Shown in pieces: positions 6,129 through 18,217 of a stretch of 32,000 nucleotides of DNA. The DNA lies in contig CP104013.1 in the NCBI GenBank assembly GCA_025839675.1, positions 660,001 to 692,000 on the forward strand, given 5' to 3'. Within the stretch, counting starts at the first letter, position 1; every line of letters starts with the position of its first letter. The position numbers were made by a program, and so were the translations under genes. Source of the DNA: Candidatus Lokiarchaeum ossiferum (GTDB taxonomy: Archaea > Asgardarchaeota > Lokiarchaeia > Sigyniarchaeales > Promethearchaeaceae). The notes under the pieces are model-generated. The model worked only from the letters and a program-made list of their open reading frames with translations, made no database searches and was not told where the DNA came from.

Positions 6129-6244
6129 AACTCATCAATTTTAATCACATTTTTTTCTCAATCTCTTTTCTTTTTTATTCCACCTTTTTTGTGATGGAAC
6201 TATCCCCCCCACTCAACTTAGGATTAACGACCAGGTAAAAAAAA

Positions 6245-14635: not shown

Positions 14636-15028
14636 ATGGTTTTAAGAAATATGAAAAGTATCAAAGATTTGATCCATGGAGTAATCCATATAATGATGTT
14701 TTACAATAATGGAATTGTTTTTCAGACAACTTTTCCTTCTGAGAAGAATATTCCTTTAATTGGAGAGAAATTGTCACTTATAGTCAATCAAATGCAAAAT
14801 TTGATGAAAATGTATGATGAAAACGAATTATCCTATAAGAAATTAATCTATGAAACTGATAATTATATCATCGCAATAATAAAATTAGGAGAAGAGAGTA
14901 ATTTAGCATTACTATTGGATAATAGCCCAACAGACTCTTTGGAATTAAAAAAAATCAAAAAATTTATTGATAAGTTAGAAGAACTGATTGACATGGACAA
15001 AGAAGAATTGGTTCACGAGAATGCCTAA
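14636..15028 (+). CDS. Roadblock/LC7 (MglB-like) domain protein, 130 aa
   Basis: The ATG lies 2 nt after the permease stop, with GAGGT at 14623-14627. IKDLIHGVIHIMMFYNNGIVFQTTFP ... LIYETDNYIIAIIKLGEESNLALLLDNS follows the Roadblock alpha-beta-beta-alpha-beta-beta-beta pattern. The fold call is by eye. Confidence 0.6.
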   Translation: MVLRNMKSIKDLIHGVIHIMMFYNNGIVFQTTFPSEKNIPLIGEKLSLIVNQMQNLMKMYDENELSYKKLIYETDNYIIAIIKLGEESNLALLLDNSPTDSLELKKIKKFIDKLEELIDMDKEELVHENA

Positions 15029-15507: not shown

Positions 15508-16728
15508 TTGGAAATCCAAAATAATCGGCATAAAGTGCTTATCCCGAAATGGCTAAGAATTTTTGATATTTTATCTGGGATATTGTATGTGATAGTAGCT
15601 TGTCTTAGTATCATAAATTTAGACCATAAGCAAATAGCAAGGGTTTATCTTCTGGCAATTAATCTACTTCTTTTGGGATTTGTAAAAATTATTTCAGGGT
15701 TAAATTACAACAAAATTAGCAAAAAAATGTTGGTTCTAAATGCATTTATGGGTATTAGTATTATAGTTTTTGCAATTTACATCATTCTTATTCCAGATAT
15801 GATTTTTGAATCATTGGTTTTACTAATCTTAATTGCGATAATGGGTCAAGGAATATATCGCACTTTATTTGCAATTTTTAATAAAAAACTAAGTATTTGG
15901 GCCACATTTGTAAATTTGAGTATAGGAATTTTAATGATTGCAATTTCCACAATTGTATATCAGACCACAAATTTATCAATTGAGATATTAATAGTACTTT
16001 TATCAATCTCCTTTATAATTAATGCTATTGGAAGAATTTTATCGGGCATTTCCGGTTATTATAATAGTAGCAAAATTTTGACAAGATCACAACCTACACG
16101 AAAAAATTATAGATTATTTTTATGGATAATGACTTCAGTTATGCTTTTATCGATCGTTTTCGCAATCATATTTTATCCTGAACAATACCTTTGGAACGAA
16201 GAATACATTAGCAATTTGGGTCGCATTTCCAGCCGTTCTGGTCTTGAAAACACAACGTCCAGATTAATTTTTACAGTTGGATTCCTGTATGTTAGTGCGA
16301 GTATGTTTTTTCTATCTATATTCATATTATTTGATAAAAAACTAAATAAACTTGATGTTTCAAAAAGTATTTTTCTATTCTTATCGGGTGTTGGCTCTTT
16401 AGGCACTGCGGTACCAACGGGTTTACCAGAAACATCGTCCATTCACATTTGGGGAACCGCTTTGTTTATCTTTTCATTCATTGTCTTTTTAATTTTATCA
16501 CATTTTGTAAAATATAAAAAAACCAAACTGAATAAAAGGAAAAAAACAGATGATATTTTTGACAAATCATTTTCGTTTGTTGTAGTTATTTGCACTACAC
16601 TTTATTTACTTACCTTTCTTTTCAAGATAGAACAGTATGTTTACTTAGCACAGAAAATTGTATTTCTGCTTCTGATAATTTTAGTGCTTTTATTGGATAA
16701 AGAAGATTTTAGTGAATCCTTTAAGTAA
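15508..16728 (+). CDS. Membrane protein: N-terminal DUF308/HdeD-like domain fused to a DUF998-like C-terminal polytopic domain
   Basis: Residues 14-190 align at about 40% identity by eye with the 17274-17840 product (shared AIFNKK-x3-WAT, RILSG-x2-GY). The C-terminal half has an ISNLG motif after its first helix, as in DUF998. It must start at a non-ATG codon (TTG 15508 or GTG 15535), because the first ATG is codon 74, inside the conserved region. Confidence 0.7.
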   Translation: MEIQNNRHKVLIPKWLRIFDILSGILYVIVACLSIINLDHKQIARVYLLAINLLLLGFVKIISGLNYNKISKKMLVLNAFMGISIIVFAIYIILIPDMIFESLVLLILIAIMGQGIYRTLFAIFNKKLSIWATFVNLSIGILMIAISTIVYQTTNLSIEILIVLLSISFIINAIGRILSGISGYYNSSKILTRSQPTRKNYRLFLWIMTSVMLLSIVFAIIFYPEQYLWNEEYISNLGRISSRSGLENTTSRLIFTVGFLYVSASMFFLSIFILFDKKLNKLDVSKSIFLFLSGVGSLGTAVPTGLPETSSIHIWGTALFIFSFIVFLILSHFVKYKKTKLNKRKKTDDIFDKSFSFVVVICTTLYLLTFLFKIEQYVYLAQKIVFLLLIILVLLLDKEDFSESFK

Positions 16729-16785: not shown

Positions 16786-17184
16786 ATGGTAAAAATATTC
16801 ATAAGCTTTCGTAAAAACGATGACGAATTTCGGCTAAAAATAAAAGAAGATTTAGAGAATAATCATTTCCATTTCTCTAGTGTATAGAAATACACAGCAG
16901 ACCATATCAACGAATTTAGTCCACTAAAAATAGAAAAAATAATTAAATCAAAGATGAAATCGTGTCAAATTGTAATTTATTTAGTTGGAAATGCTTCATT
17001 TAGAAGTAAATGGCAGGATGCAGAAATGAAGCTTGCTTTAAGGCAAAATTTGCCAATATTCCTAATTCGAATACCAAAAACAACAGGTCCAGTTCCACAA
17101 CCAGTTAATCATCTACATGCAATAAATTGGGAACCAAAATTAATAATAAGCAAAATTAAAGAAAAAACGAATTCTTTGAATTAA
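16786..17184 (+). pseudogene. TIR-like (DUF1863 / MTH538 / ThsB-like) gene interrupted by a single in-frame TAG at 16885-16887
   Basis: My manual translation from ATG 16786 is MVKIFISFRKNDDEFRLKIKEDLENNHFHFSSV*KYTADHINEFSPLKIEKIIKSKMKSCQIVIYLVGNASFRSKWQDAEMKLALRQNLPIFLIRIP... The track ORF 16954-17184 is the in-frame continuation (16954-16786 = 168 nt). The FISF..D start and the IVIYLVG-x3-F-x2-S-x-W-x3-E core match TIR-like DUF1863 landmarks. Confidence 0.6.
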
Positions 17185-17273: not shown

Positions 17274-17840
17274 TTATTTCTGTTCCTGATCTAGTTTGAC
17301 ATACCCTTGAACACCAGATAGAATTCTTACAACTCCATTTAAGAGAAATATAATTGTAAGGATGACAATGAGAGATAAGAGAGCCAAATCTTGATAGAAA
17401 AAGACGAAAATACATATTCCCACTGCGAGTAACCCCACAATCAAATTCATTAAGGTTGCCCAAAATTTTATTTTTTTATTAAAGATAGCAAATAAAATTC
17501 TATATAATCCCTGAAGTAACAAACTTGCCCCTACAAGGACTAGTACACCAATTGTTCCCCAATCTGGATAAATAATAGTCAAAATACTTGCAGCAATAAA
17601 AATTAGACCTAGGAAGAAATTGAATAACATCCAGCCTTTTGAAACTAGCTTATAATTAATTCCATTCATAATTTTTGCAAAACCCATTAAAAACAAATTT
17701 GCGGCTAGAAAATAGACCAAAGTCAGTGTTTCTAATTGCAAATTATAAAATAATGCTCCCGAAATAAGTATATACAGCATACCAATAATTATATTAAATA
17801 CACGTAGCCAAGGAGGCATTTTAACACCGATTTTCACCAT
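17274..17840 (-). CDS. DUF308/HdeD-like membrane protein (paralog of the 15508-16728 N-terminal domain)
   Basis: Six hydrophobic helices. It is a clear paralog of the neighbouring convergent gene. ATG 17840 (MVKIGVKMPPWLRVF) or ATG 17819 is preferred over the track TTG at 17885. Confidence 0.75.
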   Translation of the reverse strand: MVKIGVKMPPWLRVFNIIIGMLYILISGALFYNLQLETLTLVYFLAANLFLMGFAKIMNGINYKLVSKGWMLFNFFLGLIFIAASILTIIYPDWGTIGVLVLVGASLLLQGLYRILFAIFNKKIKFWATLMNLIVGLLAVGICIFVFFYQDLALLSLIVILTIIFLLNGVVRILSGVQGYVKLDQEQK

Positions 17841-18217
17841 AATTTTCACTCCAAAAATTAGAGTAATTACAATATAGCATTGCAAACTTTATTAATGTGT
17901 TAGGAATTTTTTAATTGCAATTTCCAATATTGGCTATTGAAAAATAAGAAATCAAAAGCATAATAAATCAAAATAATGAATTAACTGAGAATTTTGCATT
18001 CTTAGATGATTATGTTGTAAAAATATTATTTGAAAGATTTCATCAAGCTGGAAAAAAAGAATAAAAGTTCAATTTAGTAAAAAAGTGTAAAAAACATAGA
18101 TTTCATGCAAATCGCCTTCAAGCCTCAGAACTCTCAGATTAAGGTCTTAGGATTGAAATAATTGACTTGACACTCCAAAATACCACAATCCTCCTATTTT
18201 TGTTCAGAAAAAAAAAC

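Follow-up and report, generated by a model that had tools for sequence, protein, structure and literature searches.

A single in-frame TAG very probably marks a recent nonsense lesion in the only small ThsB/BcTir-type TIR-like gene of Candidatus Lokiarchaeum ossiferum

A gene for a small TIR-like protein in the genome of Candidatus Lokiarchaeum ossiferum is interrupted by one TAG codon within an otherwise intact frame, and the question raised by this locus is whether the codon marks an inactivated gene or is decoded to yield the full-length product. The window investigated here is the whole stretch of 32,000 nucleotides at positions 660001-692000 of the genome, a single contig of 6,035,313 bp with 33.6% GC, and positions are those of the window unless they are given for the genome. 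A preliminary description of the window had assigned the gene to the TIR-like (DUF1863/ThsB-like) proteins and had proposed either a very recent nonsense inactivation or a programmed read-through or recoding of TAG, latter of which would allow the gene to be switched on and off. The locus comprises the following parts:

16786..16884, forward strand: first 33 codons, MVKIFISFRKNDDEFRLKIKEDLENNHFHFSSV, of the TIR-like gene, predicted to fold into strand A, helix A and strand B (from the sequence)
16885..16887, forward strand: in-frame TAG at codon 34, the sole lesion of the gene (from the sequence and four read assemblies)
16888..17181, forward strand: codons 35-132, the stop-free rest of the TIR-like domain (from profile, alignment and open frame)
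17182..17184, forward strand: natural TAA terminator (from the sequence; family members stop at the equivalent place)
16954..17184, forward strand: 76-codon open reading frame starting at an internal ATG, which is codon 57 (from the list of open reading frames and public protein databases)

The translation of positions 16786-17184 on the forward strand yields one frame of 132 codons, consisting of 33 residues, a stop, 98 residues and the terminal TAA, with the joined product reading MVKIFISF...HFSSV, stop, KYTADH...TNSLN, terminal stop. The sole internal stop is the TAG of codon 34 in the context GTA TAG AAA, and neither a second internal stop nor a frameshift is found in this frame. The preliminary description is thus reproduced exactly, with respect to the frame that is unbroken from the ATG at 16786 to the TAA at 17182-17184 save for the TAG, to the claimed lack of frameshifts and further stops, and to the strings VKIFISF, IVIYLVGNASFRSKWQDAEMKLAL and PIFLIRIP, which are all found in the translated frame. 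Over these 399 bases, each of the other five frames contains 5 to 19 stops. A run of 98 stop-free codons 3' of the TAG was obtained in 16 of 200,000 shuffles matched to the local composition of 28.6% GC, with an analytic estimate of 1.7e-4, and the continuity of the frame is therefore far above chance. Gene callers treat the two sides of the stop as separate entities, with codons 1-33 called alone as a 33-residue product in Logan assemblies, and the 76-residue frame being the only piece of the gene that is listed publicly as a protein, besides an 84-residue variant that is also on record. The database entry of the 76-residue frame carries neither a name nor a precomputed Pfam domain.

The identity of the encoded protein becomes apparent once both parts are joined. 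The joined product matches the Pfam profile ThsB_TIR (PF08937, formerly DUF1863) with 44.1 bits at a cut-off of 21.2 (residues 5-99, profile positions 1-98 of 100) and the profile TIR_2 with 39.8 bits at a cut-off of 28 (residues 4-115). Both matches span the stop, and a six-frame search of the genome gives the same result. Among the models of PADLOC, ten matched, nine of which are ThsB models, with E-values down to 1.8e-8. A HMMER search of 1.84 billion cluster representatives retrieved 68 proteins, two of them the gene's own fragments and the other 66 distant relatives of at most about 35% identity, which are mostly stand-alone proteins of 110-145 residues. In an alignment of 26 of these relatives with the window protein (27 sequences), G68 and E80 are invariant and F5, S7, W76, G101 and P104 nearly so, and the window protein has kept every one of these conserved residues. 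They are distributed over both sides of the stop, with F5 and S7 located in codons 1-33, where the Pfam alignments to ThsB_TIR and TIR_2 begin at residues 4-5, and G68, W76, E80, G101 and P104 in codons 35-132, where the profile matches reach residue 99 (ThsB_TIR) and 115 (TIR_2). E80 is the conserved glutamate after an S-x-W motif, the position of the catalytic glutamate of TIR NADases. It aligns with the glutamate of the WVRYE motif in Bacillus ThsB (PDB 6LHY and 9B7D), which we take to be the catalytic E85 of this protein, a residue that Ofir and co-workers reportedly described as catalytic in 2021.

The same assignment is reflected in the comparison with known structures. When searched against the PDB, the profile of the family alignment detects 8FZ9 (3.1e-20), EcThsB (7e-12), Bacillus ThsB (BcThsB, 7e-10) and MTH538 (4.4e-5). 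An AlphaFold2 model of the joined product (pLDDT 89.2, pTM 0.83) is weakest at residues 31-40 around the stop and places 8FZ9 first in a Foldseek search (TM 0.75), followed by ThsB and the TIR domains of SARM1, MyD88 and TRR-2; model and fold search thus both display the flavodoxin-like TIR fold with its parallel β-sheet. Because profiles, model and fold search agree, the assignment of the joined product as a stand-alone TIR-like protein of the ThsB_TIR/DUF1863 family is solid, in full support of the preliminary description, which had left the fold of the joined 132-residue product to be settled by profile searches. What the locus does not offer is an uninterrupted coding sequence for the whole domain, owing to the TAG at codon 34.

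This TAG is a genuine feature of the DNA. Using the 76-residue C-terminal product, we retrieved Logan contigs and compared them with the window, and found the identical sequence including the TAG in contigs assembled separately from the four short-read runs SRR22273277 (a contig of 42 kb), SRR32148621, SRR32148622 and SRR32148623. Across the entire overlap of 0.9-6.2 kb, the four assemblies show no mismatch to the window. Three of the four contigs contain the whole gene and the fourth starts 33 bases 5' of the TAG, which is consequently present in all four; since such contigs drop minor variants, this agreement speaks for the majority allele. A sequencing or assembly error, with a sense codon at 16885-16887 of the true genome, had been raised as a concern in the preliminary description, and nothing specific favours it beyond the general risk that is inherent to closed genomes based on long reads. 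As four separately assembled contigs share identical bases over the gene, this explanation is essentially refuted and may be regarded as next to impossible. The four runs probably come from one culture lineage.

Codon 34 can thus be described as a real premature stop at a place where relatives carry sense codons. In the family alignment it occupies a variable column, in which none of the 26 relatives has a stop and in which those that have a residue vary, and it coincides with the part of the model that has the lowest confidence (residues 31-40, mean pLDDT 60). The comparison of this codon in orthologues, as suggested in the preliminary description, could be realized in part: the aligned residues of relatives are all sense, but these relatives are distant and none is an orthologue. 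Close orthologues were found neither through a word index of 5.8 billion protein clusters (90% identity), nor by HMMER in the 1.84 billion cluster representatives, where the best match shows 35% identity, nor in metagenome and genome contigs or in 40 related genomes, and an intact 132-residue allele is absent among the about 15 billion public proteins and the contig collections that were searched. A comparison of orthologous or empty sites within the same family and genus returned only paralog-level matches (25-35%) to the genes for membrane proteins that flank the locus. According to a profile search of the genome, the gene is its only one of the ThsB_TIR type, and two larger proteins with TIR_2 domains and one weak TIR-like protein are encoded intact elsewhere. 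Distant small TIR-like genes occur in four of 13 genomes from the same family, and none of these genes is an orthologue. One complete related genome (G010, contig C1, 2341073-2344447) holds a pair of intact ThsB_TIR genes separated by about 1 kb, in reading frames 368-847 and 1480-1962 of this segment, both on the reverse strand. An uncharacterised 149-residue protein is encoded between them and an uncharacterised 313-residue one beside them, and the pair may constitute a multi-ThsB cluster without recognisable ThsA.

Within the Asgard archaea, one class, the Sifarchaeia, is known to use pyrrolysine (PMC9723677), and a recoding of TAG therefore deserved a test in this genome. The best genomic matches to the profiles of PylS (TIGR02367, 22.7 bits at a cut-off of 178) and PylD (TIGR03911, 20 bits at a cut-off of 150) remain far below threshold, whereas the controls from Methanosarcina acetivorans for the former and from Methanosarcina for the latter pass. 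A tRNA with a CUA anticodon was detected neither by ARAGORN at its defaults, with or without introns, nor among the 35 matches to the Rfam tRNA model, in screens that also miss ordinary tRNAs. ARAGORN detects 34-47 tRNA genes and Rfam 35, and neither program finds several of the expected tRNAs, among them those for Phe, Glu(UUC), Ile(GAU) and Arg(UCU). Introns at the canonical archaeal position are present in many of the genes that were detected, and the missed ones probably carry non-canonical, multiple or unusual introns or are split. Since the detection is incomplete, a CUA tRNA may have escaped it as well. The proposed genome search for pyrrolysine genes and a suppressor has thus given a clear answer for PylS and PylD, which are absent, and a qualified one for the tRNA. 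Two further candidates were discarded in this context. A permissive run of ARAGORN (-ps80), aimed at a CUA tRNA that the defaults might have overlooked, gave false calls by the thousand and was dismissed as noise. An intron-containing gene designated 'tRNA-Stop(tta)' by ARAGORN (genome 2578576-2578681, forward strand; 50.6 bits for the Rfam tRNA model), considered as a potential ochre suppressor, becomes an ordinary tRNA-Lys(UUU), a species not otherwise represented among the detected tRNAs, when a canonical 37/38 intron is assumed; it is thus probably a mis-call, and even as called it would not read TAG.

The usage of stop codons throughout the genome leads to the same picture. TAG terminates 617 (17%) of 3659 long frames and TGA 610, a frequency of TAG that is incompatible with its efficient genome-wide suppression. 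The genome also holds dozens of frames with single in-frame stops of all three kinds. We have collected same-frame open segments that are split by one stop and across which a paralogous reading frame aligns, and found 24 such stops for TAA, 10 for TAG and 34 for TGA; as the procedure has false positives (e.g. the TAA at window position 6236, which is intergenic), only the ratios between stop types were used. For random single-base nonsense changes, the codon usage of the genome predicts proportions of TAA:TAG:TGA of 0.50:0.23:0.27, which are robust to the assumed transition bias. The observed TAG:TAA ratio of 1:2.4 is close to the expected 1:2.2 and TAG is thus not in excess, whereas TGA, with 34 observed as compared to about 13 expected relative to TAA, is about 2.6 times overrepresented. 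This excess of TGA fits the use of selenocysteine and, together with a tRNA-Sec gene at genome 228309-228401, it indicates a considerable number of selenoprotein genes. The ten TAG codons that are spanned by paralogs are located at genome positions 656231, 1244575, 1584435, 2317650, 2696732, 2796444, 3800920, 3831152, 3887743 and 3930962, and the respective frames are candidate TAG-broken genes, some of which may be false positives. At the locus itself, the 120 nucleotides that begin with the TAG fold no better than shuffled sequences (z = +1.14), with no indication of a PYLIS-like or read-through-stimulating RNA structure. Collectively, the genome shows no detectable machinery for decoding amber codons, and TAG is used throughout it as a normal stop. 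Of the two alternatives contained in the preliminary description, recoding has thus failed every test that was run, and an on/off switch based on a suppressible stop has found no support, whereas a very recent nonsense inactivation is compatible with all evidence.

We thus consider the gene very probably as a unitary pseudogene, the result of one recent nonsense substitution at codon 34 that disabled the only small stand-alone TIR-like gene of the ThsB/BcTir type in this genome. In this process, an intact ancestor would have encoded a TIR-domain protein of roughly 132 residues with the conserved glutamate, until the substitution broke the gene. Translation would now halt at the TAG and produce a 33-residue peptide that is presumably unable to form a TIR domain, and initiation at the internal ATG would provide at most a 76-residue fragment without the first half of the fold. 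The lesion appears recent because there is no second stop, no frameshift and no loss of a conserved residue; its recency, the loss of function and the ancestral role in immunity are features that we infer. The locus conforms in every respect to the class of unitary nonsense pseudogenes, with a single premature stop, an intact frame supported by homologues and no decoding machinery, and the frequency of such events in the genome corresponds to the mutational expectation. Besides the incomplete detection of tRNAs and the minor variants that contigs drop, some observations count against it: the frame following the TAG is perfectly kept (with a chance of about 1e-4), which would equally be expected if selection acted on a read-through product, and the TAG resides in a variable loop of low confidence, where an inserted residue would probably be tolerated.

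A rival idea holds that TAG is decoded in a programmed or regulated manner, by pyrrolysine, a suppressor tRNA or context-driven read-through, to make the 132-residue protein conditionally as part of an immune switch. This idea draws on the intact downstream frame with all its conserved residues, on the precedent in Sifarchaeia, on the incomplete detection of tRNAs and on the fact that the same genome recodes another stop, TGA, for selenocysteine, as reflected in its tRNA-Sec and the excess of in-frame TGA. It is opposed by the lack of PylS and PylD in searches whose controls pass and of a detected CUA tRNA, by the role of TAG as a terminator as common as TGA, by a number of in-frame TAGs that follows random expectation relative to TAA, by the unstructured sequence 3' of the stop and by relatives that never show a stop at codon 34, and we thus regard it as highly improbable. 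The only feature shared with pyrrolysine recoding in Methanosarcina and Sifarchaeia (PMC9723677) is that a TAG occurs within the frame of an Asgard gene, whereas all of its tested defining components, PylS and PylD, are absent, a CUA tRNA is undetected and TAG is a common terminator. A variant of this idea, in which near-cognate read-through, or a suppressor tRNA with an intron that the screens missed, would allow a low or conditional expression and keep a potentially self-harmful TIR enzyme throttled behind a leaky stop, appears very unlikely, a judgement that includes its milder version, where the lesion would have originated from laboratory enrichment under relaxed selection on immunity.

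Other readings relate to the population and to the fragments. A heterogeneous population, with TAG as the majority allele and an intact version in a minority or in the source sediment, might have emerged by loss during years of virus-poor cultivation. The available assemblies, which originate from runs that are probably derived from culture, and the concealment of minor variants in contigs are in line with this view, and an intact minority allele may be carried besides the TAG majority; still, the intact 132-residue version is missing from every public collection of proteins and contigs searched and two accession series (SRR22273277 and SRR32148621-23) share the TAG, and as a general account of the locus we find it unlikely. 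It is also scarcely credible that the truncated form is functional, either as the 76-residue frame from the ATG at 16954 alone or in combination with the 33-residue peptide. This fragment is predicted by gene callers and does retain W76, E80, G101 and P104, but in the AlphaFold2 model strands A and B of the central sheet are missing from it, as are helices A and B, it finds no counterpart in a family where nearly all of the 66 members are full-length with about 110-145 residues, and no start codon is found in codons 35 to 56. Judged from the model, the 76-residue fragment is unlikely to fold alone or to function.

An ordinary inactivation of a broken new member of a known TIR family is thus the most likely account, and its significance lies mainly in annotation. 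Where databases list only a nameless fragment of 76 or 84 residues, the locus would be better annotated as a ThsB/BcTir-type TIR pseudogene, which is the only gene of its subtype that this cultured Asgard archaeon carries. Our study also yields a clear negative result on amber recoding in Lokiarchaeum, where TAG acts as a normal stop and the excess of TGA is as expected from the use of selenocysteine. If other immune genes of the culture turned out to be freshly broken as well, this would be a modest hint towards relaxed antiviral selection in the enrichment culture.

The ancestral role of the protein may be considered in light of its closest known counterparts. By profile (3.1e-20) and fold (TM 0.75, rmsd 2.2-2.7 Å), the best match is BcTir (PDB 8FZ9), a stand-alone TIR protein of about 135 residues from the anti-phage pair BcTir/BcTpr of B. 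cereus (bioRxiv 10.1101/2023.05.26.542521), which shares with the window protein the motifs S-x-W-x3-E and P-x-x-x-R-x-x-x-T-x-G. The identity between both proteins is about 22%, and in contrast to BcTir, which acts with an adjacent glycosidase-TPR partner, the gene in the window is broken by the TAG and has no such neighbour. The resemblance to ThsB of Thoeris systems (PF08937; PDB 6LHY, 9B7D and 8WCF) is found in a profile match above the gathering score, in the ThsB models of PADLOC and in the alignment of E80 with the glutamate of the WVRYE motif. ThsB is larger, with about 190 residues and an extra C-terminal subdomain, whereas the window protein is shorter, its gene is interrupted and ThsA is not found nearby. 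The archaeal protein on which DUF1863 was founded, MTH538 of Methanothermobacter (PDB 1EIW), is likewise small and stand-alone, belongs to the same Pfam family and was detected by profile (4.4e-5) and fold, but this functionally uncharacterised protein is far more distant, and its profile match covers the C-terminal half only. By analogy with ThsB and BcTir, the ancestor might have processed NAD+ or taken part in signalling within an antiviral system.

The present neighbourhood bears no resemblance to such a system. The genes on either side of the TIR gene are:

15508..16728, forward strand: 379-residue polytopic membrane protein, upstream of the TIR gene
17274..17885, reverse strand: 188-residue membrane protein, facing the TIR gene

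In searches with Pfam and PADLOC, neither ThsA, SIR2, Macro, SLOG or TPR nor any other defence gene was found near the TIR gene. This includes the adjacent ThsA effector of Thoeris systems (with a SIR2-SLOG or TM-Macro architecture), which is absent within ±5 kb, and the N-glycosidase and TPR partner of BcTir/BcTpr, with no TPR or MilB-like protein beside the gene. Since no ThsA-type partner is adjacent, the gene is not part of a recognisable Thoeris system. Neighbours of the distant family members do not reveal a conserved partner either, on contigs that are short and with neighbours that are inconsistent. The TIR gene starts 58 nucleotides after the gene for the 379-residue protein on the same strand. 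The N-terminal half of this protein is 41% identical to the 188-residue protein, so that paralogous, convergent genes flank the TIR gene, and its C-terminal half belongs to a family of membrane proteins of roughly 220 residues that is found in most of the Loki-type genomes searched. We have considered the 379-residue protein as a transmembrane effector resembling those of type II Thoeris and rejected this role, as it is hydrophobic throughout, carries neither Macro nor SLOG and has family members in many Loki-type genomes without the TIR gene. Further out, the window encodes CorA, a permease of the CitMHS/ArsB type, a channel of the MscS type, a DUF1295 protein and small proteins without significant family match, that is, with no score above the curated cut-off. 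Two nucleotides after the gene for the CitMHS/ArsB-type permease, at positions 14636-15028 on the forward strand, a reading frame of 130 residues shows a weak match to Roadblock/LC7 (E = 0.034).
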